A DNA stretch of 64,000 nucleotides from positions 7,628,001 to 7,692,000 of the forward strand of contig CM075992.1 of the NCBI GenBank assembly GCA_038087875.1, read 5' to 3'. Both the position numbers and the translations under genes were made by a program. Each line of letters begins with the position of its first letter. Position 1 is the first letter of the stretch. The DNA is from Malacoraja senta. Its lineage: Eukaryota. Shown one piece after another: positions 1 to 48,742 of this stretch. The notes under the pieces are model-generated. The model made no database searches. It was not told the origin of the DNA and was given only the letters and a program-made list of their open reading frames with translations.

Positions 1-669
1 ATTTCGAGGCCCTAGGCTTCAGCCTGCGAAGCCTAATGGTAAATCCGGCTCTGGTTGTGAGGTTGTTGTTTGATTTGTATAAAAAATGGCTACGGGCTAT
101 TGTGACAAATGGTGGTAATTGTGGCAAATGTCACACTGGTTTAGGGAAGATGGAACAGAAGATCAAATTATTACCATGTCATTCATACTGTATTTAAGCA
201 CTGAGATAGGGTAGATAGATAATTAGATATTCACTATATATATATATCATCTTTGGAACTGAGCGCAACCGTGTCAGTGCCAAGGATACAGTCCACGAGT
301 ACCGACAATCCAGCTCATGAACACTAAACCAGAGACTTACTGATTCCTGAATCTGCGGTAGCTAGTTTGATCCATTTGCCTCATCAAATCTTAATTAAAA
401 CAATCTGATCATTTGGCATTTCTTGTAATTGTATTTGAGAGCAGCACAAGGTTGCCAAGATAGTCCAGAGATAAAGGATCAAGAATCGTGGCACACAAGG
501 AACACGGAGATGGAAGCATCAAGGTAAAATAACTGAGTGACACACTGAGACATCTATAGTTTGAACACGTCCATGCTCGTAGATTACACAGAGCACTCTT
601 CAAGATAATATATGGGACACCAAACAATCTTAGTTAAAAAAACACACAAATGTTTAACATAAGGGAACA

Positions 670-2500
670 CGGACAGAAAATCCAGGGTTTCTTCCAGGAT
701 GATACCAACACCAGGAACATGTGGGAAGGCATCCGGGCCATAACAAACTACAAGGCCCCTCAGATGTCTTGTAAGGATGACACAGACTTTCTCAATGAAC
801 TCAATAATCATTTCGGCAGGTTTGAGGCACTTAACACCACTATAGTGAGGAAATTAGAGCCTCAACCAGGAGAACAGACACTGTCTTTTGAAACTGCTGA
901 AGTCCGCAGAATCCTGAAGGGCATTGACAAGCGAAAGGCAGCCGGACCGGATAACATACCGGGGCGTCTGCTTAGGGGATGTGCCGACCAGCTGGCCCTG
1001 GTTCTGACAGACATTTTTAACACCTCCCTGAACCAGGCCATTGTTCCATCATGTTTCAAGACAGCCACCATCATACCAGTTCCCAAAAAGTCCACAATAA
1101 CCTGCCTGAATGATTACCGCCCCGTAGCACTCACACCAATAATAATGAAGTGCTTTGAGAGGCTTATTAAGCAGTACATGGTCTCTAAACTCCCCTCCAG
1201 TTTTGACCCGTTCCAGTTTGCTTATCGCCCGAACCGCTCCACAGAGGATGCTATCTCCTCTGCAGTCCACCTGAGCCGACAACACCTGGAGGAGAAGAAC
1301 ACCAACGTGCAGATGCTGTTTGTTGACTTCAGCTCAGCATTCAATACGATAATCCCCCAGCATCTGGTGAGCAAACTGGCACCCCTAGGATTCAATACCA
1401 CACTATGCAACTGGATCCTGGATTTCCTTTCTGAAAGACCCCAGTCTGTGCGGGTGGGGAAGAACACCTCCTCGGTCATCACACTGAGCACCGGCTCCCC
1501 TCAGGGCTGTGTCCTGAGTCCGCTGCTCTTCACATTGATGACACATGACTGTGTCGCCAGGTCCACTACTAACCATATCATCAAATACGCGGATGACACA
1601 ACAGTAGTGGGCCTCATCCGCAACAACGACGACCAGGCATACAGAGAGGAGGTGGAGCAGCTGGTGAGCTGGTGCAGCAGGAACAACCTTCTCCTAAATG
1701 TGGACAAAACCAAGGAGATTGTCGTCGACTTCAGAAAGAAAAATCAGCCCAGTTACACTCCGCTGTGCATCAACAACTTAGCAGTGGAGCAGGTGAAAAG
1801 CATCAAGTTCCTGGGAGTGCATATAACGGATACCTTAACTTGAACTACAAACATCACATCTCTGGTAAAACGGGCACAGCAGCGTTTGTACTTCCTCCGC
1901 AGGATGAGAAGATCACACCTCCACCCTCACCACATTCTACAGAAGCACCATTGAATCAGTCATGACCAGCTGCATCTCTATGTGGTGCGGCGGCTGTACA
2001 GCTGCGGACTGGAAGTGCCTTCAGAGAGTGGCGAGGACAGCGGAAAAAATCATTGGGACTTCTCTTCCTTCCATCATGGACATTGGTTACAAACGCTGTC
2101 TGTCAAGAGCTAAGGGCATTACCAGAGCCCCCACACCCCCACAATATGGACTGTCTACGCTGCTGAACTCTGGGAGGAGGTACCGCAGCGTGAAGAGCGG
2201 GACAACCAGGTTCTGCAACAGCTTCATCCCCCAGGCCATAAGACTATTGAACTCACAATCAAACCGATGCTAGAACTTTCTTATACATTGCCACTTTAAA
2301 AAACTTTCCTTTTTTAACTATGCACATGAAGCACTTTTTATGGGCACACTAAGTACTTTTACTGATCGCCTGATATAAATGTTATATTCTGCTGCTACTT
2401 TGAAGAGTCAATGCAACGAAATTTCGTTCAATGTGCACTGTGTCTATGTGTATACCTGAATGACAATTAAAGTTATATTTATTCATTATTTATTTATTCA
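670..2500 (+). mobile_element. 5'-truncated Rex1/Babar-clade LINE (RT region plus 3' tail), degraded
   Basis: ORF 650-1843 has KAAGPDNIPG, LNDYRPVALTPIIMKCFERL, FVDFSSAFNTI, GSPQGCVLSPLLF and YADD motifs. In-frame TGA at 1841, then a frameshift into the C-terminal ORF 1962-2273 (SGRRYRS..FIPQAIRLLN). ATT/TTCA-rich tail at ~2470-2500. Confidence 0.9.
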
Positions 2501-3380: not shown

Positions 3381-3870
3381 TGGTAGCGCAGCGGTAGTTG
3401 CTGCCTTGCAGCACCAGAGACTCGGCTTCCATCCTGATTACGGGTGCTGTCTGTACGGAGTTTGTACCTTCTCCCTGTGACCAGCGTGGGTTTTCTCCGG
3501 GAAGCTCCGGTTTCTTCCCACACTGCATAGACGTACAGGATTGTAGGCTAAATGGCTTGGTATAAATGTAAATTGTCCATAGAGTGTGTGTAGGATAGTG
3601 TTAAGGGCCTGTCCCACTTGGGCGTTATTTGCGCGACATCATTAAGCGTCACGACGCATGACAAGCACATGGCGCGTGGTGAGACGTGGTGGCGTAGGTC
3701 ACGCGCGGCGCTCCAGGATTTTGGGATTCACAAAATCTTTGCGCACTACCTGCGTGACGCGCAAATGACGCCCAAGTGGGACAGGCCCTTTAGTGTGCGG
3801 CGATCGCTGGTCAGCGCAGACTTGATGGGCGAAGGGCCTGTGTCCGTACTGTAAATGTAAATTAAACTAA
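3381..3870 (+). mobile_element. HE1/V-SINE-like tRNA-derived SINE, interrupted by a MITE
   Basis: Head tggtagcgcagcggtag..gagactcggcttccatcc, V-domain-like core tgtacggagtttgtac..gggttttctccggg, CR1-like tail ending (taaac)n. Confidence 0.85.
3604..3789. mobile_element. PIF/Harbinger-like MITE, 186 bp
   Basis: TIRs AGGGCCTGTCCCACTTGGGCGT..ACGCCCAAGTGGGACAGGCCCT. TTA on both sides, matching the uninterrupted SINE site gtg-tta-gtg. Confidence 0.85.
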
Positions 3871-4522: not shown

Positions 4523-4823
4523 TTTAGTTTTAGTTTAGTTTACAGATACAGCACGGAAACAGGCCCTTCGGCCCATTGAGTCCTTGCCGACCAGAGATCA
4601 CCGCACACTAACACTATCCTAACACCAGGGACAATTTACAATTTTACCAAGCCAATTAGTCTACAAACCTGTACGTCTTTAGAGTGTGGGAGGAAACCAG
4701 AGCTCCCGGAGAAAACCCACGCAAGTCACAGGGAGAACATGCAAACTCCATACAGACAGTAGCCGCAGTCAGGATTGAACCCGGGTCTCTAAGGCAGCAA
4801 CTCTACTGCTGTGCAGCCGTGCC
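4523..4823 (-). mobile_element. HE1/V-SINE-like SINE
   Basis: Reverse complement of the same family, with (tttag)n tail at 4523-4542. Confidence 0.85.
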
Positions 4824-7480: not shown

Positions 7481-7699
7481 GAAATCAATAAAGAAGTCTA
7501 TATTTTTATAGCAATTTATTACATCATCAGTTTATCTCTTGCATTACTGCCATTGCACAAGCAAATCCAGCAGTCAATCTGCAGAGTCTGATCAATGAAA
7601 CAAGAAAAAACAAGATCAATGCTCACAGAATATTATAAACTCAACATCAATCAACCCCAAGTCTGTGCCAGCTTTCGCAAAGAGCAGTCAAAATGTAGC

Positions 7700-7862
7700 A
7701 ACAAAAAACTGTAGATGATGGTTTACAAAAAAGACACAAAATGCGAGAGTAACTCAGCGGGTCAGGCAGCATCCCTGGATAACATGGACCGTGAGGTCAC
7801 CTGTCCATGTTCACCAGGGATACTGCCTGACCCGCCGAGTTACTCCAGCATTTTGTGCCTTT
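7700..7862. repeat. Inverted pair of Penelope-like termini (hairpin)
   Basis: cacaaaatgc..gagtaactcagcgggtcaggcagcatccctgg..catggac is followed directly by its reverse complement. Confidence 0.8.
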
Positions 7863-8939
7863 TTCCCCCCTCAAAGAGCAATTCAGTTGAAGACAATCTA
7901 TTATTTCCCTCTCCTTAAGATCCTTTGCAATTTATGTATGTAGGCTTTTACCAAAACTTTATCCACCTCACTAGTGGGCAGTTCGTCCCAAGCCTTAAAC
8001 ACTTCTTTTTCCATGTTGCCTCTAATTCTAGATAATTGTACCTGTAATCAGTTGTTTTTTTTAGTGGTAGTGTTGAAAGAGAATGCGTAGGAGAAGCAAA
8101 GAAAACAATTACATGGTCTGCGTGGAAAAATTAAGCCACAGTGACATATTTCAATGCTGTAACACTCTTATTCTATGAAATCGTAAGGCAGCAGGAAAAC
8201 AAAAGCTGTGATTGTAATCCCAGTAGGTTAGTATTTGACACCACAGTGAGAAAATTTAGATTTTCTTCATTCATCAGAGGACCCATCGCCTTGAGTGGTT
8301 GTCAATGCGATGGGAAGATGGGTTGTTATCTGTAGAGACAAGTTAAATGATGACAATTCTCCCCTGGAGGCACAAGAGACCGCAGATGCTGGAATAGTTA
8401 GCAAAAAAAAATAGGGCAGCTGGCAGCTCTCAGCAGATCAGACAAGATCTATGAAGAGAAATGGACAGTTGATGTTTTGGGTCAAGATCCTTCAACTAAA
8501 CTGAAATAGAAAGCCCTCGACCCAAAACATCACCTATTCATTTTCTTCAGAGATGCTGCCTGATCCGCTGAGTTACTCCAGCTTTTTGTGTCTATCTAGA
8601 GGGGAAGTAGCCAGTATAAAGAGGTGGATGGAGAAGTGGAGAGAGGGGGGGAAATTAGCTAGCAGGTAATAGGCAGAAAGACATAAAATGCTGAAGTAAT
8701 TCAGTGGGTCAGGCAAGGATTACTGCATATTTTATGTCTTTCCTTGTTAAATCAGCGTTTCAGTTCCTTGTTTCTATATTTAAAGTTTAATAAGGGTGGG
8801 GTGGGTTGATTGGTAGATAACAGCCCTGTGGGGGAGGGAAGGGTGGAGGTAGCAATAGGGCCAAAGTTGACAAATAGGCTGACAGAGGATGGAAGTGTAT
8901 AGATATCCAGGATACTAGATATCCAGGGTAGATCTGCCA

Positions 8940-10160
8940 GGACTAAACCTCCTTTGAGCAGGACACCATCCCTTTCAGTTTTTCCATCCCCACCAGATCT
9001 CCTGAGATGAGGCTTTCCACAGCAGGACATTTGAAATGTCTTCCTTTTTCAGGAAACACGGTTTCCCTCCCACTGTGTTTCACTAAGCCCTCACTACCAT
9101 CTCTTCTATATGTCACACTTAGACTCTTAACTCAACTCGCCCCAAACAGAACAGGGCTAGTGTCTTCGTTCTTGACGGTCACCCCATCAGCCTCTGTATC
9201 CAGCACATCATTCTTCAACAATGCCACCAGCTACAACATGATCCCACCATCACTCACATCTTTCCCTCCCCATCCCTTTCTGCTTTCAGCAGGGACCAGT
9301 CTCCCTGTGACTCCCCAGTTCCCTAAGCACTTTACCCTGCAACCACTGGTGGTATAAAATAGGTCCCTAAATGTAAAACATCTCACCCCTCATCCCCATC
9401 CAGAGAGCTGAACAGCCCTTCCAGGCGACACAGGGAATCACCTGCACCTCCTCCAACTTTATCCACTGCCTGCAATGCTCTTGGCGCGGCCTCCTCTACA
9501 TCGGTGAGGCCAACGGTCGACAAGACGAGCACTTTGCTGAGCACGTGCTCTCTGTCTGCTGTGTCCATCTGAATTTCCCGGTTACCAGTAAATTTAACTC
9601 CCAAAACGACTTGTCTGTCCTAAAGGGCCTGTCCCACGGGCATGCGACTCCATGCGGCAAGCGCGACCTAACCAGAAGTGGGGGCCGCGCGGAGGTCGAG
9701 TGATCCCCGTACAGGGCCAGTCCCACCAGCACGCGGGAAGTGCTACCAAACCGGAAGCGGGGGCCGTGCGGAGGTCGAGTGACGTCAAGACGGTGCGTAC
9801 GGCGTCGAGCGGTGCGCACGGCCTCAATGCGGCTGCGTACGGCGTCGAGGCGGCGCGCACGGCCTCGATGCGGCTGCGGGGCGGCAGGCTGTTGCCGCGC
9901 GGAATTTTTGAACAGTGTCAGTTTTTCGGAGCCCCGCGCGATGTCAGAACCAGCTCCGCACAACTCCATTTGGCTCCGGCGATCGAAGTGGGACCGGCCC
10001 CGCGACTTCCGCGCGGCCCCCACATCCGGTTTGGTCGCGCTTGCCGCATGGAGTCGCATGCCCGTGGGACAGGCCCTTTAATCTCCTCCACTGCCAGGGT
10101 GAGGCCAAATGCAAACTGGATGAACATCAACTCATATTCTACCTGAACGGCATGAGTATT
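8940..10160 (+). mobile_element. Degraded Penelope-like element ORF (GIY-YIG endonuclease region), interrupted by a MITE
   Basis: About 9420-9555 translates to ITCTSSNFIHCLQCSWRGLLYIGEANGRQDEHFAEHVLSV, resembling PLE GIY-YIG domains. Sequence resumes after 10077. Confidence 0.75.
9624..10077. mobile_element. PIF/Harbinger-like MITE, 454 bp, CpG-rich
   Basis: Near-perfect ~70-bp TIRs beginning AGGGCCTGTCCCACGGGCATGCGACTCC; flanks taa and tta. Confidence 0.85.
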
Positions 10161-12628: not shown

Positions 12629-13488
12629 TTTTAATTTATTTTTTATTAATAATAATTTTTTATTAGAGGTATCTGCATATCATAGTCCAACCCAATACAA
12701 ACTTTGTGTAACGATTACATATTAAGTATCCAGGGTTCCGGGTACCCAGTTACCAAAGTAGCTGGGGTCTTCCTTTATCGGTTACATATTAACGTTGCCT
12801 CTAATTATTTATTTATATTTATAGATAAGAAAAATAAAGAAATAAAGAAAAGAAATTAGAAAAATAAGATAAACTATCAATAATACAACTTAGGAGATAG
12901 GTCCGTAGGTCAGAAAACGTAACTATTCATCTAGTCCTGGGTTCGGGTTTCAATCAGGCCTCCACGCCGGCCCAGTCTACCCCTTCAAATAATCTATAAA
13001 TGGAGACCATATTTTAGTAAATAATTCTGGTTTGTCAATTAAGACATATCTAATTTTTTCCAAATGTAAGGTTTCCGACATTTCCATAATCCACATCTTA
13101 ATTGTGGGGGTTGCAGGATTTCCCCAAAATTTTAATATTAATTTTTTCCCAATTATTATACTGTACTCAAGGAAATTTCTTTGGTTTGTTGTAAGTTTTA
13201 GATATTGTTCTGATATGCCCAAAATTATTAATTTAGGATCGGGATCCAGTTGAGTATTAACAACTACAGCGATTATTTTTAAAATATCCATCCAGTAATT
13301 TTTAATTTTTATACAATTTACAAAGGTATGGGTTAAATTAGCCGATGAGTATTGGCATTTATCACAAATAGGAGAGATATTAGGAAAGATTCTATTTAAT
13401 TTTGTTTTTGAATAATGCAGTCTATGTAGTACTTTAAATTGTATTAAAGAATGTCTGGCATTTAATGAACATTGATGTATATGTTGTA
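12629..13488 (-). mobile_element. 5'-truncated L1-clade LINE with TSD
   Basis: ORF 12977-13291 (LILKFWGNPATPTIKMW..LHLEKIRY..KIWSPFIDYL) resembles fish L1 ORF2 C-termini. A-rich tail on the minus strand; 18-bp duplication aagcatctgtagttcttt at 12611 and 13489. Confidence 0.85.
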
Positions 13489-13575
13489 AAGCATCTGTAG
13501 TTCTTTCCTACGTTTAAACTATTAATGTCTGTTGAGAGTGTAATCTGGTGCAACTTTTTTATATCAATAACTCAC

Positions 13576-14970: not shown

Positions 14971-15059
14971 TAAACCTGACCCCCAGTCTTAAGAAGGATC
15001 TATTCCTGAAACGCCACATATTCCTTTTCTCCAGAGATGCTGCCTGTCCCGCTGAGTAA

Positions 15060-15405
15060 AGGGCCTGTCCCACTGTACGAGGTAATTCAAGAGTTCTCCC
15101 GAGTTTTCCCCTGATTCGAACCCGGAGAATATCCGTAGTGGGTCCGTAGGAGTTCGTGGATGTCTTGTAGTGGCTCGTAAGAGTAACGGTAGGTACTCTG
15201 GAAATCCGGTAAAGTCGTGACGTTTTTTCAACACTGTGAAAAATGTCCACGAGTAAAAAAATACTCGAGATGAAATTTATTTTTACTTTTTACTCGTACG
15301 AGCCACTACGAGACATCCACGAACTCCTACGGACATTCTCCGAGTTCGAATCAGGGGAAAACTCGGGAGAACTCTTGAATTACCTCGTACAGTGGGACAG
15401 GCCCT
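15060..15405. mobile_element. PIF/Harbinger-like MITE, 346 bp, inserted in a Penelope-like terminus
   Basis: ~75-bp TIRs AGGGCCTGTCCCACTGTACGAGGTAATTCAAGAG..; interrupts gctgag-tta-ctccagc. Confidence 0.85.
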
Positions 15406-16186
15406 TTACTCCAGCATTTTGTGCCTCTCTTCAGTGTAAACCAACACCCGCAGTTCCTTCCTATACAGTACATATTCAAAAACCGATGTCAATGCTGGCA
15501 CTATCAGAATAACTTACTAGTTTCACATCCTGGCCCCTTTCATCTAATATTGCAATTTTCCCCTAATTTATTCATTTCCCTCTTGATCCTGCCTACACCA
15601 TATATGCCTTCAATGCATTCCACCAAACTAAACGCATGAAAAACAGTTTATCCTTATGTCATCCTTAATTTTCTTCTCCTTTAGTCTTTACTTGTGACTG
15701 ATCCACCAGAGGTAGGCCTCCCATTATCCACTTTGTCCAGATCCTTGTCATGTTATATACTTCTATCAGATCTCTCTTCACCCTTTACTTCTCGAATTCA
15801 TGCTATAACAGCAGTCCCTCATCTAAGGAGCCATTCTCATAAATGTGCTCCAGTCATCTTCATACCTCCATGCCCTTCTTTTGACGATGACTCCAGAAAT
15901 GAACACAGCAATCCTGATGAGCCAGGGCACTGCTTCACAAAAGGTTCAGCATGATTTCACTGTTTCACCTTTGAAACAGACCCTTTGTCCCACAATTATG
16001 TATACTTCATTCAGATCCCTCTCTCAACCTGCTCTGCTCAAGGAACACAACCTCGCACTAGCCTCGTAAATAAAAGGTCCCATCCCAGGCAACATCCTGG
16101 TGAGTTTCTTCTCCAGTACAATCTCATCCTTCCTATTGTATAGCAACCAAAAATACACAAAGCATTATAGTTGTGGCCTAAAGAAT

Positions 16187-16591: not shown

Positions 16592-18061
16592 TTGTTACAT
16601 AAAATTGCACCGTAACCTCCATGTTCTCATATTCCATGCACTGCCTATTGAAGGCTACAGTCCTGTACACCTTCTTCACTAACTGAACCACCCATGTTGC
16701 AACATTTGGGGATCCATTGACTCGTACACCAAGATCATTCTATTCCTCAATACTCCCCAAGGTCTGCCTACCAAACCGCATAGTCTGATCCTCCCAAACT
16801 GCATAACCGTGCACTTATCAGGATTAAATTCCTTCTGGCATTGCTCTGACCATTTCACCGACTGATCAAATATCTTCCATTAATCTGAGGTCAACATCCA
16901 CACTATCATTATCACCACCAATTTTCACGTCATCTGCAAACGAAACTATACCCAATTGACGGAACACAAAGTGCTGGAGTAACTTAGCGGTTCAGGCAGC
17001 ATCTCTGGAGGGCATGGAAGGGTGACGTTTCGAGTCTGAACCCTTCTTCAGACATTGTAGAGAGGGAGAAAAAGCTGGGAGAGGTGTGTGGTGGGACAAA
17101 CCCTGTCAAGTGATATTTGGATACAGATGAAGGGGGTTTATTTGGCTTAGGGGTGTACAAAGGCTAGAGATGAAATGGAGATGAAATTGACAAGAAGCAA
17201 AAAGGTTTGAATGAGCAGTGAAATGTAAACCCAAGGGGAGAGATGGGGGTGGAAGGGGTTGGGGTGAAAGAGAGGGTGCAACAGTAGAAGAAAGGGTGCG
17301 TAGAAGTGGCCGGAGATGGAGGGGGAAGAAAAAAAAATGCAGCGGGGCTTTATCTAAAATTGGAGAATTCAATGGTTATACCATTGGATTGTAAGCGACC
17401 CAAGTGGAATATTGAGGTGCAGATAGAAGTCTAGCATTGTGCATGTCTTATTAAACATTTTCCGCTTGGGTAGCATGCAATCCAACAGTAAATTCTCCAA
17501 CTTAAAGTAATTTTCCTCTTATCCCCTCTCTCTTTTCTGCACCTCCCCCACCTCATCCATTTCTCCCACTAACTCCCACCCCTTGTGCTCTTGCTCCTTC
17601 CCCCACCTTTGTGTACTCATCTACCATCCATCAATCCCTCATTTCCTTTTTATCCCCCCTCTTTCCTCCTTCCGCCACCCACCCCAATCATCTCCTTATC
17701 CCTCTCTCAGGCTCTACATTTCACGCCTCCTCTTCTCTGGCACCCTTTTGCCACCGTTGCGCCTCTAGCCTTAGTCACTTACTCCTTAACCGTCACTTAG
17801 CTACCAATCAAACATATTCATAAGCGTTAGGAGCAGAATTAGACCATTCGTCTCATCAAGTCTACCACGCCATTCAATCATGGCCAATCTATCTTTCCCT
17901 CTTAATCACATTCTTCTCCCTTCTCCCCATAACCCCTGACAGCCGTACTAATCAAGAATCTATCTATCTTTGCCATAAAAATATCCATTTCCCAGAAATA
18001 TTAGGGATCCGAGGATCCAGTGGGAGGAACTGAAGAGAATCCACATTAGTCAGGAAATGGT

Positions 18062-18158
18062 AGGTACACAAAAGTGCTGGAGAAACTCAGCGGGTGCAGC
18101 AGCATCTATGGAGCGAAGGAAACAGGCAACGTTTCGGGCCGAAACCCTTCTTCAGACT
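18062..18158 (-). mobile_element. Short hammerhead-bearing Penelope-derived insertion with TSD
   Basis: Flanked by ggaaatggt at 18053-18061 and 18159-18167. Minus strand begins AGU CUGAAGA A GGGU-UUCG-GCCC GAAAC GUU. Confidence 0.75.
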
Positions 18159-18372
18159 GGAAATGGTGTTAGGTAAACTGTTGGGACTGAAGGCAGATAA
18201 ATCCCCAGGGCCTGATAGACTGCATCCAGAGAGTTGTGAATCTGTGGAATTTTCTGACACAGAAGGCAGTGGAGGCCAATTCACTGGATGTTTTCAAAGA
18301 GGTTTTACCTCTTAGGGTTAAGGGAATCAAGGGATATGGGGGAAAATCCGGAACGGTGTACTGATTTTGGAT

Positions 18373-18503
18373 CAGTCTGAAGAAGGGTTTCGGCCCGAAA
18401 CGTTGCCTATTTCCTTTGCTCCATAGATGCTGCTGCACCCGCTGAGTTTTTCCAGCACTTTTGTCTACCTTCGATTTTCCAGCATCTGCAATTCCTCCTT
18501 AAA
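18373..18503 (+). mobile_element. Short hammerhead-bearing Penelope-derived insertion with TSD
   Basis: Flanked by tactgattttggat at 18359-18372 and 18504-18517. Begins CAGU CUGAAGA A GGGU-UUCG-GCCC GAAAC GUU. Confidence 0.75.
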
Positions 18504-21361
18504 TACTGATTTTGGATGATCAGCCATGATCACATTGAATGGCGGTGCTGGCTCGAAGGGCCGAACGGCCTACTCCTGCACCTGTTTTCTATGTTTCTAT
18601 CCCAGAGTACTCAAGGACGTGGCGCTAGAAATCGTGGATGCATTGGTGATCATTTTTCAATGTTCTCTCGACTATAGATCAGTTCCTGTGGACTGGATGG
18701 TAACCACTTTTTAAGAAAGGAGGGAGAGAGATAACAGGGAACTATAGACCAGTTAGCCTTACATCGGTAGTGGGGAAGATGCTTGAGTCGATTGTTAAAG
18801 AAGTTATAGCAGCGCATTTGAAAAGCAGTGACAGGATCGGTCAAAGTCAGCATGGATTTATGAGGGGGAAATCATGCTTGACAAATCTTCTGGAGTTTTT
18901 TTGAGGATGTAACAAGTAGAATGGATAAGGGAGAGCCAGTGGATGTGGTGTATGTGGACTTTCAAAAAGTCTTTGACAAGGTCCCACACAAGAGATTAGT
19001 GTGCAAAATTAGAGCACATGGTATTGGGGGTAGGGTATTGATATGGATAGAGAACTGGTTGGCAGACAGGAAGCAAAGAGTAGGAATTAACGGTCCCTTT
19101 CAGAATGGCAGGCAGTCATTAGTGGGGTGCCGCAAGGTTCGATGCTGGGACCCCAGTTATTTATTATATATATTAATGATTTAGACGAGGGAATTAAATT
19201 TCGTTCAGACCGAAAGGTCTGAATGACAAACAAAGGAATCTCTCTAATCTCTCTCTAAATGAGGCATCTCCAAGTTTGCGGATGATACAAAGCTTGGCGG
19301 CAGTATGAGCTGCGATGAGAATGCAATGAGGCTGCAGGGTGACTTGGATAGGTTGGGTGAGTGAGCAGATGCGTTATAATGTGGATAAATGTGAGGTTAT
19401 CCACTTTGGTGGCAAGAACAGGAAGGCAGATTATTATCTGAATGGTGTAAGATTAGGAAAAGCGGTACAACGAGACCTCGGTGTGTTTGTGCATCAGTCA
19501 CTGAAAGTAAGCACGCAGGTACAGCAGGCAGTGAAGAGAGCTAATAGCACATTGGCCTTCATTGGGAGAGTATTTGAGTTTAGGAGCAAGGAGGTCCTAC
19601 TGCAGTTGTACAGGACCCCGGTGAGACCACACCTGGAGTATTGTGTGCAATTTTGGTCTCCTAATTTGAGGAAGAACATTATTGCTATTGAGGGAGTGCA
19701 GCGTAGGTTCACCAGGTTAATTCTCAGGATGGCGGGAGTGACATATGATGAAAGAATGGATTGACTGGGCTTGTATTCACTGGAATTTAGAAGGATGAGA
19801 GGGGATCTTATAGAAACAGATAAAATACTTAAGGATTGTACAGGCTAGATGAAGGAAAAATGTTCCCCATGTTGAGGGAGTCCAGAACCAGGGGTCACAG
19901 TTTAAGAATAAGAGGTAGGCCATTTAGGACTGAGATGAGGAAAAACAACACCCAGCGAGTTGTGAATATGTGGAATCCTCTGCCACAGAAGGCAGCAGTG
20001 TAGGCCAATTCACTGGATGTTTTCAAGAGAGAGTTAGATTTGGCTCTTAGCGCTAAAGTAATCAAGGGATATGGGGAAAAAGCAGAAACCGGGTACTGAT
20101 TTTAGATGATCAGACATGATCATATTGAATGGCAGTGCTGGCTCGAAGGGCCAAATGGCCTACTCCTGCACCTATTTTTCTATGTTTTGACGTCCTAGAC
20201 TCTCCCACTAATAGAAACATCCTCTCCATTATCCAGGCCTTTCACTATTCACACCTCACCTGCATCCACCTATCACTTGCCAGGCTTGCCCTGAACCCCA
20301 CTTCTCATTTCCAGATTTCTCCCCCTACTACAATCAGTCTGAAGAAGGGCCCCGATTCAAAACTAAATCTGACTATTCCCTGCACCGATGCTGCCTTATA
20401 CGCCGAGTTCCTCCAGCACTTTGTGTTTGGCTCACGATTCCACCAGCTGCAGTTTCTTGTCTCTCCTACAAACATTTCATACTGCGTCCTGCTACTCACA
20501 ATGATTCACGTATCCATATTACTAGGTTTCTCTGTTCCCCCACTCTTTTTAGAACAGTAACTTCATTGTAAATTTCCTCACCTCATCCTTACTACCAAAT
20601 TGGATCAGCTCATATTCCTCCACATAAAAATCATGTTTTCATACATCTGACTGTTCTACCAGACTGTGTGTATATCCTGCTGCATTTCATCACTATCTTC
20701 TTCATAAATCACAATATCATCAAGTTTTGCGCATCTGCAATTTTAAAAATTGTGGCTTGCACCCCTGTCCAGTCTGAAAAATCTAAAGTTAATTATCACC
20801 AAGACTCTTAGGTGCAGTTTTCCAGTTAGAATGTGATGTGTACTTAAAAGATCAAACACTATTGCAAATTCGAAAAGATAACACAGCAAGAAGTTTAAAG
20901 AAAGAAAAACACAATACAAATATTCAGTCCTTGGTTTGATTTGAGACAAGCTCATTTACTGGAGCTCTACACTTATTGATTCAAATTAAAAGCAGGGTAA
21001 GATTGAACCAGCGCTTCACAGTGGATTTACAGGTATATGTAACCTCAACTCTGTATTCCAAGCCTTCTACAGTAATCTTTCACTCTCTTGCTAACCAAGA
21101 ATTATTCTACCTCTGCCTTGAAAATACTCAAATACTCTGCTCCCACCTCATTCTGCGGGAGTGTTCCAAAGACTCATGACCATCTTAAAAAATTGACTCA
21201 TAGGTCTTAAATAGCAATCACATATTTCTAAACTGTAACCTTTAGTTCTAGATTCCCCACAAAGAGGAAACAACCTCTCCACACCCATACTGTCAACACT
21301 ACTACTCAGTTTGTATATTTCAATGCCCCTTACTCTTCCAAACTCCAGAATGTACGATGAG

Positions 21362-21545
21362 CAGGAAGAAACTGCAGATGCTGGTTTAAACCAGACACAA
21401 AACGCTGGAGTAACTCAGCGGGTCAGACAGCATCTCTGGAGAAAAGGAATAGGTGACATTTCCTGTTCCTGAAACGTCACGTATTCCTTTTCTCCAGAGA
21501 TGCTTTGTGACTGGCTGAGTTACTCCAGCTTTTTGTGTCTATCTC
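21362..21545. repeat. Inverted pair of Penelope-like termini (hairpin)
   Basis: gacacaaaacgctggagtaactcagc..tctctggagaaaaggaata mirrored by tattccttttctccagaga..gctgagttactccagctttttgtgtc. Confidence 0.8.
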
Positions 21546-26106: not shown

Positions 26107-27440
<1,334 letters not shown>

Positions 27441-29924: not shown

Positions 29925-30220
29925 GAAGCAGCACAGTAGCGCAACGGTAGAGTTGCTGCCTTAGAGCACCAGAGACCCGGGTTCCATCCTGACTACGGGT
30001 GCTGTCTATATGGAGTTTAGATGTTCTCCCTGAGACCACGTGGGTTTTCTCCAGGTGCTCCGGTTTCCTCATACACAGGTTTGTAGGCTAATTGGCTTGG
30101 TAAAATTGTAAATTGTCCCTATTGTGCGTAGGATAGTGTGAGTGTAGGGGATCGCTGGTCAGCATGTACTCTGTAGATCGAAGGGCCTGTTTCCGCGCTG
30201 TATCACTAAACTAAACTAAA
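29925..30220 (+). mobile_element. HE1/V-SINE-like SINE
   Basis: Head, core and (ctaaa)n tail. Confidence 0.85.
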
Positions 30221-33299: not shown

Positions 33300-34080
33300 T
33301 TCTTCAGCAAAAAAGAAATTGCTGGAGGAACTCGGCAAATCGAGCAGCATCTGAGAAGGGGGTGTTGCGGTTGAAGGAATTGTCTACGTTTCAGATCAAG
33401 GCCCTGCAATAGGACTGAGTGGAAAGGGAGAATGGCCTGTATGAAGAGGGGAAGGGTTTGCAACGGGTCAGGTGGATAGGTGCACTACGGAGGTGTGAAG
33501 GATGGTGGGCAGGTGGTGTGAGGGGAGAATGAAGGTGGAGGCCTCTGCTTAATTCTGAAATGATCAGATTTCATAAGTGGAATCTGATGAGGAAGGAAGG
33601 TGATAATGGGAACCGTAAGTGGAGAGGTGAAGGGCAGATGGAACCAGATGGGAGAATGGATTCAATGGGTAAAATATATGGGCAGGAGGGGAATGAAAAT
33701 GGGTGCTAGAGAGGGTATAGGAAAGGGGACAAAAATCAAAAGATGAGATGGGTCAGTGAAGAGCGAGAAAGGAAAAGGTGGTGGTGGGGACCACAGGAGT
33801 AAGGATAACCTGAAATAGCAAAATTCATTGTTCATACCATTTGGTTGTAGTCCACCCAAGTGGAATATGAGATGTTGTTCCTTTAGTTTGCGTTGGCCCG
33901 CTCTGGCAGGGTGGAAGACTGAGGATAGACAATCGATTTCGGAAGGGGAGTCAAAGTGACAAGCAGCTGGGTGTTTGTAATGGACACTGTGGACAAAACA
34001 CAGGAGCTCTGCTCTGCTCACATCAGGACCTTTGACTGCAATAAATGAGGTTGGAGGAGGGCATATGAATCTGTCTCTTC
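33300..34080 (-). mobile_element. Old Penelope-like fragment
   Basis: Minus strand encodes a KLKEQHLIFHLGGLQPNGMN-type PLE C-terminus, followed by a low-complexity tract and terminal motif. Confidence 0.6.
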
Positions 34081-34672
34081 AGCTGCATTTGCGGAGAATC
34101 TTCAGAAGGAATTGTTTTTGTGTCTTTTGCTTCAAACTCTGAATTTCTAGATTTGCCTTGCTGTTTTCTGGGACACCCGTTCTTTGGTTTTGCATATTAC
34201 CGCTGCCAAGTTCAGTACTCGCATAATAATGACTGTACTTTGAAAGTTGGCAGTGAAGAGGTTTAAGGCATCACGAGCAGGTGGGAAGTGCTTATAAATA
34301 CATAAAGATCCTGCTGGACTTCAACCACCAACTGAACAATGAACAATGAACAAAGCACCTTCGTGGCAGAAAATATATGTAGAGCTTTTAGTCTTTTCTA
34401 GTGGTTAGCGTATAGACAAGACTGGCACCATTGTTAACATTAATGCCATAATTAAACTTTGATACTTCTGTTTAAAAGTAGATCTGGGCCAAAATTTAGC
34501 ACATGCACTCTATGGTACTGAAACAGTTAGTCTAATTATTGAATGCATCTTGATCAAATATGCATACATTTCTCAGTATCTGTTGAAGGGCGAAATGATA
34601 AAGGACGTGAATAATTTATGTTCAGTCAAGTGCAGTCTCTAAGTAGAGGAGCACGTAATAAAAAATACCAAA

Positions 34673-34842
34673 GATAGACACAAAATGCTGGAGTAACTCA
34701 GAATGTAAGGCAGCATCTCTGGAGAAAATGGATAGGTGGCATTTTGAGTCGGGTCTTTCCTCCTGACCTGAACGTTACCTATCCATTTTCTCCAGAGATG
34801 CTGCTTGACTCGCTGTGTTACTCCAGCACCCTGTGTCTATCT
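34673..34842. repeat. Inverted pair of Penelope-like termini just upstream of DSN1 exon 4
   Basis: gatagacacaaaatgctggagtaac..gcagcatctctggagaaaatggataggt mirrored by acctatccattttctccagagatgctgc..gttactccagca..tgtgtctatc. Confidence 0.8.
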
Positions 34843-34908
34843 TAAGTAGGGGAGCATTTCTGTTATTATTAGTGTTGAATTTTCTCTTTTTCCTCCCATT
34901 TGTTTTAG

Positions 34909-35564: not shown

Positions 35565-36262
35565 TAGGTAGACAAAAATGCTGGAGAAACTCAGCGGGTG
35601 AGGCAGCATCTATGAAGTGAAGGAAACGGGCAACGTTTCGTGTCTAGACCCTTCTTCAGAGTCAACGTGATTAATAAAGTTTTGCTTGGGATGCCACCGC
35701 TGTTGTCATGGCCCAAATAGCTCTCCATTTCATTGCTGTGGGGAGGTGTTGCTGAGCATATTTCTTGTATCTATGGAGCGAAGGAATAGGTGACATTTCG
35801 GGTCGAGGCCCTTCAGAGTGATGTCGGGGGAGGGGGCCGCAAAATGATAGGAGGAGGCGGAGCCACTAGGCTGTGGGAGAGCTGGGAAGGGGAGGGGAAC
35901 GAGGGAGAAGGGGAGTTTAGCAACCTCCTCTCCTTGCTTTCTCCCTCCTCCCCTTCCCAGCTGTCCCACAGCCTACTGTCTCCGCCTCTTCCTTTTTCTC
36001 GCCCCGACATCCGTCTGAAGAAGGGTCTCGACCCGAAAGTTTATTTATTTGTGTGTGTATATATTTATATAATGGTATATGGACACACTGATCTGTTCTG
36101 TATTCATGCCTACTATGTTCTGTTGTGCTGAAGCAAAGCAAGAATTTTATTGTCCTATCAGGGACACATGACAATAAACTCTTGAATCTCTCTTGAATCT
36201 TGAAACGTTGCCTATTCCTTCGCTCCATAGATGCTGCCTCACCCGCTGAGTTTCTCCAGCAG
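35565..36262. repeat. Nested inverted Penelope-like termini with an internal ~150-bp purine/pyrimidine palindrome
   Basis: Arms 35580-35637 and 36203-36260 are complementary; 35851-35990 is self-complementary; hammerhead-like core at 36015-36039. Confidence 0.75.
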
Positions 36263-36861
36263 TGCTCCCACAATTGTTGTGTAGAATGATCCAGGATTTT
36301 TCCCGTGATCCTTGTCCTTGGTTATAAAGGACATGGATTAAGAAGTTTGTTATCAAAGAGGTATTGGCTAGCTACTGCATTACATGTTGTAAATGGTATG
36401 CAGTTCAGCAACAATTTGTTGATGGGAAAGACAGTGCATGCCTTTACCATGTTTTACCATGACAGTTCAAGTGGTGAATGTGATATTGCTGAGATAATCT
36501 GTTCTGGATGGTATGAAGCCTGTTTTGTTGATTTATTCATGCAGGTCTGGTGTTTATTTCATCACCCTCTTAAATGATGCCTCGTGGGCAGTGAAAAGAC
36601 TGCAGGGAGTTGAGTGATGAATACCTTATAAGATATGAGAGACTGCAATATATTCTACTGTTGACATACTCTTATTTATGAAGCTGGCTCAGATGTTTTC
36701 AGTCGATGACCACTTGGGATGGTGGGGCTGCAGTGTGATGTAGTTAGATTATCTTGTGATTGAAATGGAATTTATGTGGTGCCAATGTCACCTATCACAT
36801 AATCGTAGTTATTCAAACCTTTTTATAAATACCATTGAAATCTTATACCATCATTAGAAAA

Positions 36862-37997: not shown

Positions 37998-38304
37998 TTT
38001 TAGTTTAGAGATGCAGCGCGGAAACAGGCCCTTCGGCCCACTGATGCAGCACCGACCAGCGATCCCCGCACACTAACATTATCCTGCACACACTAGGGAC
38101 AATTTTTTACATTTTATACCAATTCAATTAACCTACAAACCTGTAAAACTATGGAGAGTGGGAGGAAACCAAAGATCTCAGAGAAAACCTACGTAGGTCA
38201 CGGGGAGAAGGCACAAACTGTACAGACAGCGCCCGTAGTCAGGATGGAACCCAAGTCTCTGGCGCTGTAAAGCAGCAGCTCTACCGCTGCGCCACCATGC
38301 CGCC
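37998..38304 (-). mobile_element. HE1/V-SINE-like SINE, near full length
   Basis: Minus strand starts ggcggcatggtggcgcagcggtagagctgc. Confidence 0.85.
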
Positions 38305-38939
38305 CACAGATTAAGTTGCTGTGCAGGTAATTTCTTATCATGTACATGTTCAAATACCACTTTGATGTGTTTAAGATTTCTGCCTCTACCATCCTTGTAG
38401 GCAGTGAGTTATGAACTCTTGAGTGGAAAAAACTATTCTCCATCACCTTATATCAGTTACTTTGAATCTGTAACCCCTCTTTTGACCCATTATTATGCAA
38501 AATGGGTCCTTTCTGTTCACTTTCACTAAACCTTTATTAATTTTGTACACTTTAATTTAACTTCCCCTCAGCCAAATATCTGAAGCACATTCTATCTATG
38601 TTCTCTCATAGCTACAGTCTCAACACCATCTTTATAAATGTTGATGCCTTCCTCTGTACAATCACATCTATCTCTAATATGGTGACAGGCTATGCATAGC
38701 AACATTGCGCAAATATCATTAAAGGTCTATTGAACAGGTATATTAGGCAAGAGTCATTGGAATAAGGATGTGGTAGACTTGCAAATGGAAGGGCAGGTTA
38801 CTTTGTATTAGTATTCAAATTACATGCAAATCTAGAGCCCGAGGCACAACAAACATAAAATCAACGTCAGGAGCTAACTGATTCAATATTAATTTTTCAA
38901 AGATGTGAAGACATTTTAGAGTTGCAATTTCTAAAGGGT

Positions 38940-39540
38940 CTCTGAGTCTGAAGAAGTGTCTCGATCCGAAACGTCATCCATTCCTCCTCTCCAGAGATGC
39001 CTGACCCGCTGAGTAAATCCAGCTTTTTGTGTCTGTCTTTGTGTGTGACTATCTCCTCTTTCAGTGATTGTGCTACTAATTCCACATCCGCGAATTGTGA
39101 AGCTAGAGGAAGTGATGCAGGGGAGGGGAAAATGGGTGTGAGTTCAGGTGGGGTGCAGGGGAGAGGAAGGGGGGGTTGTAGTTACTGAAAATTGGAGAAT
39201 TCAACGTTCATACTATTGGGTTGTAAGCTACCCAAGTGGAATACGAGGTGCTGCTCCTCCTTGTGGCCTCACTGTGGCAATGAAAGCGGCCTAGGACGGA
39301 AAGGTCTGTCTGGGAGCGGAAAGAAGACCAAAATGGTTAGCAACCGGGAGATCCAGTAGGCCATGGTGGACTGAGCACAAGTGTTCAGCGAAACAGTCTA
39401 AGTTTGGTCTTGCCGATGTACAAGAGCCCACATCGGGAACACTGGATGCGATAGATGAGGTTAGAGGAGGTGCACATGAACCTCTGTCTCACCTGGCAGG
39501 ACTGCTGGGGTTCCTGAATGGAGGTGAAGGAGGAGGTATA
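38940..39540 (-). mobile_element. Penelope-like GIY-YIG remnant (minus) with an oppositely oriented hammerhead-bearing terminus at 38940-39040
   Basis: 39185-39540 is the reverse complement of the GIY-YIG-like region; ctgaagaagtgtctcgatccgaaacgtc at 38948-38975 on plus. Confidence 0.7.
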
Positions 39541-44590: not shown

Positions 44591-45540
44591 TAATTCCCAT
44601 CAAAGTGATTAACCACTTATTTATTTCTACCTCGCAGGATGTTTCTCCAGAAATAGCCTGTCTAAATACTGATGCGATGTTCTCCCCAGTCAAAAAAGCA
44701 AATCCCTCTCCTGTCTGCAGTACCTGTAGCCCAGCACATTGAGCTGTCAGCCCTGCACATCGCTCAACCATGTTTCCATAATCGCTGTAATATCACAATC
44801 CTATGTGCCTACCCATTCCCTGAGTTCATCTGCCTGTCAAGCTCCTTGCATTAAAATAATTGCAGTTTAGTTTATCAGGCATTCCTCGCCCTCATTCCTG
44901 CCTCTTGACAACTGAACTTGCTTGGACTTTTTCATCTGTCCGTGTACAAAAATCACTGCAAGTAAACCAATTCTGCAAATAGAGGCACAATGCCTGTCTG
45001 AAGAAGGTTCTTCATAGCGAAGAAGGGTCCCGACCAGAAACGTCACCCATCCTTTTTATTCCCAGAGATGCTGCTTGACCCGTTCAGTTACTCCAGCACT
45101 TTGTGTCTATCTTTGGTATAAACCAGCATCTGTTCTTTGTTTCTCAATTCTGCAGATAATTAGGCAAGTTTTATTGCAAGGAGATTTATGTAGGAGGAAA
45201 TTTTATTCTAATTATATGGCCCCAGAGAGACTGCTGTTGACGTATTGGCTATTGGCACAACCTAACATTGAATATATTTACAACAGAGGGAATACAATGA
45301 AGGTTCATCAATTTAATTCCTGATGTTGGGGTATTCTTCTAGGAGGGGAGGTTAAGCAGTCTGTGCCTATGCTTTAGTCCAGATAATATATAAAATGTTA
45401 ACATTCTTGCCAGGGTAAATGCAGGGATGATATTCCTTCTGACTGGGATGTCTAGACCCAGGAGTTACTGTCTCAACATGAAGTATATTTTATTCAGGAC
45501 AATGATGCCAAAAAGGTTTTCACCCAGAGGGTCGTCGATC

Positions 45541-48045
45541 ATATAACCATATAACCATATAACAATTACAGCACGGAAACAGGCCAAACGACCCTTCTAG
45601 TCCGTGCCGAACACGTATTCTCCCCTAGTCCCATATACCTGCGCTCAGACCATAACCCTCCATTCCTTTCCCGTCCATATAACTATCCAATTTATTTTTA
45701 AATGATAAAAACGAACCTGCCTCCACCACCTTCACTGGAAGCTCATTCCATACAGCCACCACTCTCTGAGTAAAGAAGTTCCCCCTCATGTTACCCCTAA
45801 ACTTCTGTCCCTTAATTCTCAAGTCATGTCCCCTTGTTTGAATCTTCCCTACTCTCAGTGGGAAAAGCTTATCCACGTCAACTCTGTCTAACCCTCTCAT
45901 CATTTTAAAGACCTCTATCAAGTCCCCCCTTAACCTTCTGCGCTCCAAAGAATAAAGCCCTAACTTGTTCAACCTTTCTCTGTAACTTAGTTGCTGAAAC
46001 CCAGGCAACATTCTAGTAAATCTCCTCTGTACTCTCTCTATTTTGTTGACATCCTTCCTATAATTAGGCGACCAAAATTGTACACCATACTCCAGAATTG
46101 GCCTCACCAATGCCGTACAATTTTAATATTATATCCCAACTTCTATACTCAATGCTCTGATTTATAAAAGCCAGCACTCAAAAGCTTTCTTTACCACCCT
46201 ATCTACATGAGATTCCACTTTCAGGGAACTGTGCACAGTTATTCCAAGATCCCTCTATTCACCTGCATTCTTCAATTCCCTACCATTTACCATGTACGTC
46301 CTATTTTGATTTGTCCTGCCAAGATGTAGCACCTCACACTTATCAGCATTAAACTCCATCTGCCATCTTTCAGCCCACTCTTCCAACCGGCATAAATCTC
46401 TCTGTAGACTTTGAAAATCTACTTCATTATCCACAGCCCCACCTATCTTAGTATCATCTGCATACTTACTAATCCAATTTACCACACCATCATCCAGATC
46501 ATTGATGTACATGACAAACAACAGTGGACCCAACACAGATCCCTGTGGCACCCCACTAGTCACTGGCCTCCAACCTGACAAACAACCATCCACCATTACT
46601 CTCTGGCATCTCCCATTCAGCCACTGTTGAATCCATCTTGCTACTCCACCATTAATACCCAACCATTGAACCTTCTTAACCAACCTTCCGTGAGGAACCT
46701 TGTCAAAGGCCTTACTGAAGTCCATATATACAACATCCACGGCTTTACCCTCATCAATTTCCCGAGTAACCTCTTCAAAAAATTCAAGAAGATTAGTCAA
46801 ACATGACCTTCCAGGCACAAATCCATGTTGACTGTTCCTAATCAGCCCCTGTTTATCCAGATGCTTATATATATTATCTCTAAGTATCCTTTCCATTAAT
46901 TTGCCCACCACTGACGTCAAACTAACAGGTCTATAATTGCTAGGTTTACTCTTAGACCCCTTTTTAAACAATGGAACAACATGCGCAGTACGCCAATCCT
47001 CCGGCACTATTGCCGTTTCCAATGACATTTGAAATATTTCTGTCATAGCCCCTGCTATTTCTACACTAACTTCCCTCAATGTCCTAGGGAATATCCTGTC
47101 CGGACCTGGAGACTTATCCACGTTTATATTTCTCAAAAGTGTCAGTACTTCCTCTTCTTTGAATCTCATAGTTTCCATAGCTACTCTACTTGTTTCCCTT
47201 ACCTCACATAATTCAATATCCTTCTCCTTGGTGAATACCGAAGAAAAGAAATTGTTCAATATCTCCCCCATCTCTTTTGGCTCTGCAGATAGCTGTCCAC
47301 TCTGACTCTCTAATGGACCAATTTTATCCCTCGTTATCCTTTTGCTATTAATATAGCTGTAGAAACCCTTTGGATTTACTTTCACCTTACTTGCCAAAGC
47401 AACCTCATATCTTCTTTTAGCTTTTCTAATTTCTTTCTTGACACTTTTTACATTTTTTATACTCCTCAAGCACCTCATTTACTCCATGCTGCCTATAATT
47501 ATTGTAGATCTCTCTCTTTTTCCAAACTAAGTGTCCAATTTCCCTTGAAAACCATGGCTCTTTCCAATTTTTACTATTTCCTTGCAACCGAACAGGGACA
47601 TAAAGATTCTGTACTCTTAAAATTTCACCTTTAAATGTCCTCCATTTTTCTTCCACATCTTTCCCATAAAACAAACTGTCCCAATTTACTCCTTTTAAAT
47701 CCTTTCGCATCTCCTCAAAGTTAGCCTTTCTCCAATCAAAAATCTCAACCCTAGGTCCAGTTCTGACCCTCTCCATAATTATATTGAAACTAATGGTATT
47801 GTGATCACTGGTCCCGAACTGTTCCCCAACGCATACCTCTGCCACCTGACCCGTCTCATTTCCTAACAGGAGGTCCAGCACCGCCCCTTCTCTAGTAGGT
47901 ACTTCTATGTATTGCTGCAAAAAACTATCCTGCACACATTTTACAAACTCCAACCCATCCAGCCCATTTACAGAATGTGTTTCCCAGTCTATGTGTGGAA
48001 AATTGAAATCTCCCACAATCACTACCTTGTGCTTACTACGAATAT
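45541..48045 (-). mobile_element. Relatively young 5'-truncated CR1 LINE (endonuclease tail plus RT)
   Basis: ORFs 47426-48022 (VGDFN, SDH), 46255-47478 (RT, YADD) and 45625-46110, separated by only a few lesions; (GTTATATG)n tail. Confidence 0.93.
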
Positions 48046-48742
48046 CTTTGAAACTTTCTACCTAAGCCGGCTTTTGGAGTAATTTAAGGTGGCGGGTATT
48101 AGATGTTTGGAATTTGAAGATAAACACAAAGCAAATCAGTGAATCAGGCAGCATCTCTGGAGAAAAGGAACAGGCGATGTTTTGGGTCGGAACCCTTGTT
48201 CAGGGTGAAAGGTCTGGATGTTTGGATATTATGGAAATTGAAGGATATATACTTCATGCTGAGGTAAAAGATCACGTGCGTTTTGAATGAAAGAGTTGGT
48301 ACGAGGGGGCCTACTTCTGTGATTTATGTTCGCTGCCTGAATGCACCACTGGAGATGTGTACGGGGTCACAGCCAGCACTGCTGCTCATCAATAGGAGAT
48401 ATGGGAATGGCTTATTGATGTTCAAGCTACGCCTACATTTCCCATGGTTAGGATCAGACGCTCTATATTGCTGCACTTGGGATTGCACTTTCTTAGAAAC
48501 GTAGCTGAACACTATCATATCCTCCCTTTAGTAATTATTTCACCAGGCCAAACCTCAGTAAATGCTGTTGAACTGTTGCCATGTTACTGTGTATGTTCTA
48601 TTTGTTTGCAGTCTTTCACTGCCAGAGTTCAGAGTTGCTCCTGCAGTCGTGCATCATCTCTGTTGCTGGCAGTGAATAGTGCATGTGTCAGCAATCTGCT
48701 TGTGGGACAATATTTGTGACCATGATGTTCTTTATCTCTCAG

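Follow-up and report, generated by a model that had tools for sequence, protein, structure and literature searches.

Why do two short inserts, lying on opposite strands and nested in repeat fragments that we take to be of CR1 type, both begin at a ribozyme motif? In the window (the whole 64-kb stretch of Malacoraja senta DNA that was analysed), a minimal type I hammerhead lies 3–4 nt in from the start of each, the distance from that start to C3 of the CUGA being 3 nt for insert 1 and 4 nt for insert 2, and the two inserts differ at 4 of their 97 shared positions. The inserts, their target sites and the host of the second one are:

18053..18061, left target-site duplication of insert 1, 9 bp, copy of GGAAATGGT
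18062..18158, minus strand, insert 1, 97 bp, probable 5′-truncated 3′ end of a Penelope-like element, no tail
18159..18167, right target-site duplication of insert 1, second GGAAATGGT copy
18232..18601 (limits approximate), plus strand, CR1-type LINE 3′ fragment, host of insert 2
18359..18372, left target-site duplication of insert 2, 14 bp, copy of TACTGATTTTGGAT
18373..18503, plus strand, insert 2, 131 bp, probable 5′-truncated 3′ end of the same subfamily as insert 1, with tail
18504..18517, right target-site duplication of insert 2, second TACTGATTTTGGAT copy

As a chance control for the duplications, an exact flanking repeat of at least 9 bp was found in 0.7% of 300 random interval pairs. 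The empty site of insert 2 can be read in CR1 3′-tail paralogs near 20094 and 51252, which hold the 14-mer once, and in 570 contigs of a related organism, among the matches listed, in which the upstream CR1 flank is joined directly to 18504. In the case of insert 1, the CR1 ORF2 frame is broken by the insert and resumes after the right copy with duplicated codons. The CR1 3′ fragment hosting insert 2, with an exact repeat of 6 bp on either side (18226 and 18602), lies in turn within the ORF2 fragment hosting insert 1, and 118 contigs of the relative, among the matches listed, pass at 18227 into sequence resembling that which follows 18602. A reverse transcriptase (RT) ORF of this host kind within the window matches RVT_1. 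That the inserts represent one event or an inverted repeat was rejected, since their duplications are separate and their hosts different. Coordinates, chance control and empty sites all agree with the first-pass annotation, which had described two oppositely oriented insertions of ~97 and ~131 bp with direct repeats of 9 and 14 bp.

The motifs at which the inserts begin are:

18126..18157, minus strand, motif of insert 1, a minimal type I hammerhead with C3 at 18155 and a GUU triplet, cut predicted between 18128 and 18127
18375..18406, plus strand, motif of insert 2, a minimal type I hammerhead with a GUU triplet, cut predicted between 18404 and 18405

In insert 2 the motif consists of a 2-bp helix I, CUGAAGA with an extra A, a 4-bp helix II with a UUCG loop, GAAA and a palindromic ACGU. 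A 25-nt core pattern has exactly two exact matches in the window and none in 100 shuffles. The same annotation had placed both starts 3–4 nt upstream of an identical core and recognised a minimal type I hammerhead in which A9 is followed by an additional A and stem III is the palindrome ACGU; the measured starts, the core, the extra base and the helices bear this out. Over the family, the hammerhead structure pairs 85.8% of cells against 11–46% in slid controls, the structure being derived from the same sequences. Covariation was 0.237 against a shuffled 0.233, with 214 of 500 shuffles as high, in a set of 15 decayed copies that carries little power. The check suggested with curated hammerhead covariance models gave no Rfam hammerhead family, whether at E values up to 1 over the window or, for 18030–18540, up to 10; motifs with a loopless helix III may escape such models. 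Whole inserts do not fold better than shuffles (z of 0.41 and 0.74); in the monomer, predicted pairing is 0.04–0.08 for helix II and ~0.01 for helix I, and in the predicted minimum-energy fold of the dimer the two molecules pair with each other through their helix II strands, the catalytic fold being absent. Inserts 1 and 2 have GUU as their triplet; most of the older copies in the window have GUC, as does 38% of the contig depth of the relative at the site of insert 1, a depth that we do not take as copy number. Because the predicted cut lies 31–32 nt within both inserts, at a site that is intact, their template was uncut, and cleavage as the process that sets their 5′ ends was rejected.

From which element do the inserts come? 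The family has 40 profile matches in the window, inserts 1 and 2 among them, and none in three shuffles, a density of about one match per 1.6 kb. Ten of the 25 matches that reach the motif start continue upstream with a pyrimidine-rich tract (at least 70% C+T; background 4%), and two upstream-continuing matches reach the GIY-YIG coding sequence of a Penelope-like gene end, in keeping with the Penelope derivation proposed at first pass. The copies that link hammerhead and gene, and a remnant of the gene, are:

16955..17420, minus strand, older family copy with GIY-YIG coding end, pyrimidine-rich UTR, hammerhead and 3′ end
33301..34091, minus strand, older family copy with GIY-YIG end, UTR, decayed hammerhead and 3′ end
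39194..39540, minus strand, decayed GIY-YIG coding remnant of a parent-type element, E 5e-18 to P0001, no hammerhead attached

The first copy and the GIY-YIG remnant at 39188–39251 share 87.7% identity along 65 nt, and the second was recovered by tblastn with P0001 (E 3e-5), which itself has a Pfam GIY-YIG domain at cutoff. Pfam found no match on 33662–34078, and on the 58-aa GIY-YIG remnant gave only a GIY-YIG match at E 0.041; in the Atlas, a GIY-YIG lead appeared in 10% of one cluster's members. In P0001 a Cys cluster, in a stretch outside the coverage of the window's remnants, precedes the GIY-YIG domain, an arrangement typical of Neptune/Nematis (PMC8557442), and the parent element is probably of Neptune type. 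In it the GIY-YIG end is followed by a pyrimidine-rich UTR (pseudo-LTR), then by the hammerhead, ~65 nt and an optional 33-nt tail, the link to the GIY-YIG end being seen in the family at large and not in the young subfamily of inserts 1 and 2. Scans by DNA pattern gave no matches in viral, metagenome and prokaryote genome contigs, and a sigma-70/terminator scan, which looks for bacterial signals in what is a eukaryotic host, gave nothing above chance. Three raw-read runs gave 10, 0 and 2 aligned reads, numbers too small to serve as a test.

The window also contains eight head-to-head pairs and one inverted tail fragment; pairs with flanking duplications occur, the pairs often join inside the hammerhead, and head-to-head joints are the best-supported contig joints of the relative among the matches listed. 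One such pair belongs to a sister subfamily:

35769..36264, head-to-head pair, both arms reaching ~90–105 nt upstream of the hammerhead, the plus arm split by another repeat

The Rfam miRNA matches at 35819–36011 correspond to this inverted pair. A target-site repeat was found for 10 of the 25 units searched, one of only 6 bp.

We therefore consider it probable that the inserts are copies, severely truncated at the 5′ end, of a Penelope-like element that is abundant, bears an endonuclease and carried the motif along. Following the biochemistry of the Anolis element, the protein would nick both target strands, here 9–14 bp apart, and reverse transcription would start inside the uncut RNA at one of two sites, yielding a 97-type 3′ end without the tail or a 131-type end with it. 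Synthesis would often halt within the hammerhead or shortly beyond it, after which the end would be joined to the target. The segment that distinguishes the two types is:

18471..18503, plus strand, optional tail of 33 nt, present in insert 2 and absent from insert 1

An optional tail of 30–40 bp between two RT start sites is known in Penelope-like elements (PMC11167929; PMC8557442), and the 33-nt length difference fits this tail/no-tail pair of internal starts. Across the family the 3′ ends are bimodal, with 13 of 40 at model positions 93–102 and 16 of 40 at 119–122, the model end; the tail is present on one arm only in four of eight inverted pairs read by hand. In the relative, 213 contigs among the matches listed depart from the element at 18503, with long, dissimilar flanks (median 255).

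What sets the 5′ ends? They pile up at the 5′ edge of the hammerhead, where the stop rate is 3–10-fold higher (with boundaries set by hand); the pile-up covers −15 to +1, and many other ends lie inside the motif. This pile-up exceeds plain random truncation, and its cause we infer: a stop hot spot, formed by the hammerhead or by the C-rich stretch that directly precedes it, would let hammerhead-first copies arise repeatedly. The first-pass annotation had kept coincident truncation as an alternative; truncated copies these probably are, but with 5′ ends enriched at the edge, the shared start is not pure coincidence. On the family tree, in which 2 of 28 branches are well supported, hammerhead-first copies form no clade and require 9 changes, against 9.8 for shuffled labels. 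In the relative, 367 contigs among the matches listed depart at the 5′ edge of the element into a C-rich stretch; their overhangs are short (median 30), and we read them as still repetitive sequence; the agreement of this overhang is 0.47, the contigs were placed at 85% likeness, and other subfamilies are a possible source. The literature as far as it was accessible yielded no paper on a 5′-end pile-up or on head-to-head joining at a Penelope-like hammerhead. A third copy of the young subfamily is also short:

26690..26750, minus strand, third young-subfamily copy, 61 bp, 11-bp duplication, without the hammerhead core

It groups with inserts 1 and 2 (support 100/92), and its own first base lies 1 nt downstream of the base that follows the predicted cut. 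The three copies have exact duplications of 9, 14 and 11 bp; none of the three extends upstream in the window, the nearest extended copy being a sister (support 83/78).

Could the young subfamily instead descend from a short, non-autonomous, SINE-like master that has its start at the hammerhead and relies on the Penelope-like protein for copying in trans? The near-identical starts (−3 and −4) with clean duplications, and the shortness of all three young copies in the window, would suit such a master, and non-autonomous derivatives with trans-mobilisation by pLTRs have been described (PMC8557442; PMC3846280). We regard it as unlikely, however, as no A or B box was found on the sense strand at 0–1 mismatch, unrelated subfamilies show this start too, beside extended members, the motif-edge starts are spread (about −14 to +1) and the third copy begins 33 nt further in. 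One A box with a single mismatch lies on the antisense strand of insert 2. The SINE-like master amounts to the idea of the first-pass annotation minus the need for cleavage; that idea, a separate ribozyme-bearing retroposon of SINE or retrozyme kind, is mostly unsupported in view of the intact internal cut site, the motif-less third copy, the GIY-YIG-linked relatives, the scattered tree and the lack of an array or a Pol III box.

It is quite improbable that the template RNA often begins at the hammerhead edge, with the pyrimidine tract and CAG before CUGA serving as splice acceptor or transcription start and RT running off a processed 5′ end. In extended copies a pyrimidine tract and then (C)AG do directly precede UCUGA, and in the Penelope of D. 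virilis an intron has its 3′ end at the 5′ boundary of a 2-bp helix I (PMC4209133), helix I being 2 bp here as well; but the hammerhead-first copies lack a common upstream exon-like sequence and many ends fall inside the motif. That the inserts are retrozyme monomers, freed by hammerhead self-cleavage of a multimer or circle and then inserted, is hardly credible: animal retrozymes do derive from Penelope-like pLTRs and occur as dispersed monomers too (bioRxiv 10.64898/2026.07.22.740005), the start of the third copy falls within 1 nt of that predicted for the 3′ cleavage product, and a few low-support joints in the relative's contigs, among the matches listed, go back ~33–36 nt within the motif, but a cleaved monomer should run from one GUH to the next whereas both inserts keep an intact site in their interior, the 40 matches in the window include no tandem array of the unit, the lengths differ by the tail and not by the unit, and the pairing predicted for the monomer is as low as given above.

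The truncated-copy reading places the family beside known systems. With the EN+ Penelope-like elements (Penelope/Poseidon, Neptune and Nematis), it shares, in the accessible portions of the published accounts (PMC8557442; PMC3846280), the C-terminal GIY-YIG end, a UTR with a hammerhead, heavy 5′ truncation, the head-to-head inverted partner and the optional 30–40-bp tail, often on one arm. Target-site duplications are common to both as well, 8–16 bp here and 8–10 bp in the rotifer examples of those portions. The copies here differ in being extremely short, in their density and in having 5′ ends concentrated at the hammerhead, a concentration that those portions do not describe. Metazoan Penelope-like minimal hammerheads, mostly dispersed single motifs that have been ascribed to truncated elements, are likewise of type I, with an extra nucleotide between 9 and 10.1, G10.1–C11.1 and a palindromic 15.2–16.2; helix II is 4 bp here compared with 6–8 bp in the published examples, and helix I has the 2-bp length seen in D. 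virilis (PMC4209133). In Poseidon of Anolis carolinensis (PAc), two internal RT starts downstream of the hammerhead define the tail/no-tail ends and uncut RNA is the template; the PAc ORF starts within the hammerhead (PMC11167929), whereas the present element is known from its 3′ parts alone and probably belongs to a different clade. The non-LTR retrozymes of animals, as far as the accessible text goes (bioRxiv 10.64898/2026.07.22.740005; PMC7229834), have in common with the inserts the ORF-less state, the type I hammerhead and the kinship to pLTRs, but form tandem repeats with one hammerhead per unit, whereas here single copies with duplications and Penelope-type 3′ ends are found. A minimal hammerhead at Penelope-like ends is already described, and the inserts are probably not a new ribozyme-driven mobile element.

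As such the inserts are ordinary, two among very many truncated Penelope-like ends, and the solo copies, having neither promoter nor partner, are probably dead. Hammerhead mutants were not impaired in insertion in vitro (PMC11167929), and if cleavage is dispensable there, the family's many short, duplication-flanked footprints offer material for asking what the hammerheads of these elements do. One possible, if doubtful, answer is that the hammerhead is a structural element of integration and not a pair of scissors: it would stop RT, its palindromic ACGU would tether two template RNAs on a dimeric RT, and the cDNAs from both nicks would join at the motif. If true, this would explain the hammerhead-first solo copies, the head-to-head junctions inside the motif and the conservation of weak or non-cutting hammerheads in Penelope-like elements. 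Should the motif prove to be an RT stop or joining site, a ribozyme fold would have a non-catalytic role in retrotransposition.

The two hammerhead-bearing, Penelope-derived insertions nested in CR1 fragments are accurately described by the first-pass annotation as oppositely oriented, repeat-flanked copies sharing one core, and both their sizes and their flanking repeats were reproduced:

Insert 1: 18062-18158, minus strand; 97 bp, with a 9-bp repeat on either side
Insert 2: 18373-18503, plus strand; 131 bp, with a 14-bp repeat on either side

The core pattern has exactly two exact matches in the window and none in 100 shuffles, and an exact repeat of at least 9 bp was found in 0.7% of 300 random interval pairs. 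Both are true insertions, since each of the paralogous CR1 tails at about 20094 and 51252 has the 14-mer only once, and the CR1 ORF2 frame split by insert 1 resumes beyond it. When 144,188 contigs of a related organism (X1) were aligned to the window, 570 connected the upstream CR1 flank straight to 18504 and 118 bypassed the nested CR1 fragment at 18227.

A family profile built from 17 window copies gave 40 matches in the window, some of them pieces of one interrupted copy, against none in three shuffles. Two extended copies (16955-17420 and 33301-34091) run into the last part of a GIY-YIG coding sequence, and a remnant at 39194-39540 matches P0001 (E 5e-18), a database protein that combines an RT-like part with a GIY-YIG part. 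By homology, this makes the repeat unit the 3′ terminus of a Penelope-like element (PLE) that encodes an endonuclease, likely of the Neptune clade to judge from the Cys cluster of that protein. The 40 matches have bimodal 3′ ends: model positions 93-102 account for 13 and positions 119-122, where the model stops, for 16, the other 11 lying elsewhere. At this end insert 2 is 33 nt longer than insert 1. According to PMC11167929, reverse transcription of the Anolis element PAc begins at either of two internal RNA sites downstream of the hammerhead, which delimit an optional tail of 30-40 bp, and mutating the hammerhead leaves insertion normal. In X1, at least 213 contigs depart at 18503, the element's 3′ edge, and continue in long, dissimilar flanks (median 255, agreement 0.39), as expected for a fixed 3′ end. 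At the 5′ edge at least 367 depart; their overhangs are short (median 30) with a C-rich consensus (agreement 0.47), which we read as continuation into the repeat.

The window also holds other repeats, and its repeat content as a whole resembles that of a cartilaginous fish. Another decayed PLE RT/GIY-YIG remnant (8976-9622 and ~10091-10145, plus strand) is apparently broken by a GC-rich repeat at ~9620-10080; a PLE end at 14986-15458 is split at ~15058-15405 by a ~350-bp insert, possibly a MITE, whose ends resemble inverted repeats; and one at 44968-45158 has a 14-bp duplication with one mismatch, ~13 nt of filler, and the start of its hammerhead partly repeated in tandem. Among long LINE remnants, at 46255-48061 (minus), 638-2273 (plus) and 12977-13507 (minus), are RT and endonuclease frames of CR1-like type, RT of a second clade and a zinc-finger end resembling L1. 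A further abundant repeat, ~300 bp long and probably a SINE, has about a dozen copies across 3381-41291 (e.g. 3381-3603, 4529-4822, 29928-30220, 37999-38305). A (CA)n tract of ~400 bp lies at ~26230-26660 and a tandem repeat of period ~45 bp at 62149-62418.

Could the inserts belong to a separate ribozyme-bearing retroposon? Together with a third copy, they form a young subfamily (clade support 100/92):

Third member: 26690-26750; 11-bp duplication, differs from either insert at 4 of 61 nt

Counting against plain truncation, none of its copies in the window extends upstream, so that this subfamily could, with low probability, derive from a short master. The SINE- or retrozyme-like element proposed in the first-pass annotation is largely unsupported. 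The third member begins just past the predicted cut site, without the hammerhead core. On a tree of 31 of the 38 scored arms (seven very short or decayed ones excluded), the 12 hammerhead-first arms are scattered, requiring 9 changes against 9.8 for shuffles, a weak argument because good support is confined to 2 of 28 branches. No Pol III boxes occur on the sense strand and no tandem array of the unit in the window, the feature by which bioRxiv 10.64898/2026.07.22.740005 defines animal retrozymes. Cleavage as the origin of the two inserts' 5′ ends is ruled out, since the predicted cut site lies 31-32 nt inside both and is intact.

The motif itself resembles the minimal PLE hammerheads of metazoans in its extra base after A9, G10.1-C11.1 and palindromic 15.2-16.2; PMC4209133 ascribes most single motifs to truncated PLEs, counts thousands per genome, and reports no monomer cleavage and low dimer cleavage. 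The predicted hammerhead of the inserts has a 2-bp helix I and a GUU triplet, GUC making up 38% of X1 contig depth at the insert 1 site. In the monomer, helix II has a predicted pairing of 0.04-0.08 and helix I one of 0.01; over 15 copies, pairing holds for 85.8% of cells and covariation equals that of shuffles. An Rfam search found no hammerhead in the window; it did give sub-threshold plant miRNA matches at an inverted PLE pair (35769-36264), whose plus arm is split within the hammerhead by ~160 bp belonging to a different repeat, which has a relative at 26110-26231.

The earlier concern that two copies are too few to distinguish a pattern from coincident truncation is partly answered, as 5′ ends are concentrated at the hammerhead across 38 arms, scored by hand with boundaries set by eye, subfamilies pooled and arms of one pair not independent. 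Relative to the motif start, there are 13 ends per 258 nt at risk in -15 to +1, 12 per 940 inside the motif, 3 per 2215 downstream (biased, short pieces being missed) and 10 per 1930 upstream (binomial p 3e-7, for hand-scored, non-independent arms). Shorter extensions, based mostly on homology, give a ratio of 7.5 (p 4e-6), which falls to 3.4 (p 0.005) with the two longest removed. Twenty-five profile matches start at model position 12 or earlier. In 10 of them the preceding 45 nt are at least 70% pyrimidine, against a background of 4%, and the remaining 15 end close to the motif or run into an inverted partner. Heavy 5′ truncation is the described pattern for PLE insertions, which often have such a partner, itself 5′-truncated, and a tail at one end (PMC8557442 and PMC3846280). 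By hand reading, the window has eight head-to-head pairs, four with the tail on one arm only; in six, the ends of both arms fall within about -3 to +34, in or at the hammerhead:

7697-7860, mini-pair
8377-8604, mini-pair
21364-21545, mini-pair
34665-34843, mini-pair
50066-50335, mini-pair
57840-57985, mini-pair

Three of these six have a flanking duplication of 8-14 bp. The best-supported X1 joints connect the two opposed inserts around motif positions +6 to +11 and are thus head-to-head junctions. Arm counts, pair junctions and X1 joints together establish the hammerhead region as a real hot spot for 5′ ends. For its cause we have likely candidates: RT stalling at the fold or at the adjoining C-rich tract; by analogy with D. 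virilis, a splice or start site (PMC4209133 and PMC2377424); occasional cleavage (compare the third copy); or two templates tethered via the ACGU palindrome, dimer cleavage being described in a review (PMC6765202).

X1 contigs also repeatedly fold back, joining 18147-18150 to 18382-18387 across a loop of 3-4 nt where helix II starts. One junction variant is dominant (depth 5711 of 6746), so the fold-back unit may have been amplified whole. In two variants the loop, read on one strand, is of GNRA type.

Literature searches turned up nothing published on this family or on a clustering of 5′ ends at the hammerheads of PLEs. Taken as a whole, the two inserts are quite probably truncated 3′ ends of a common PLE.
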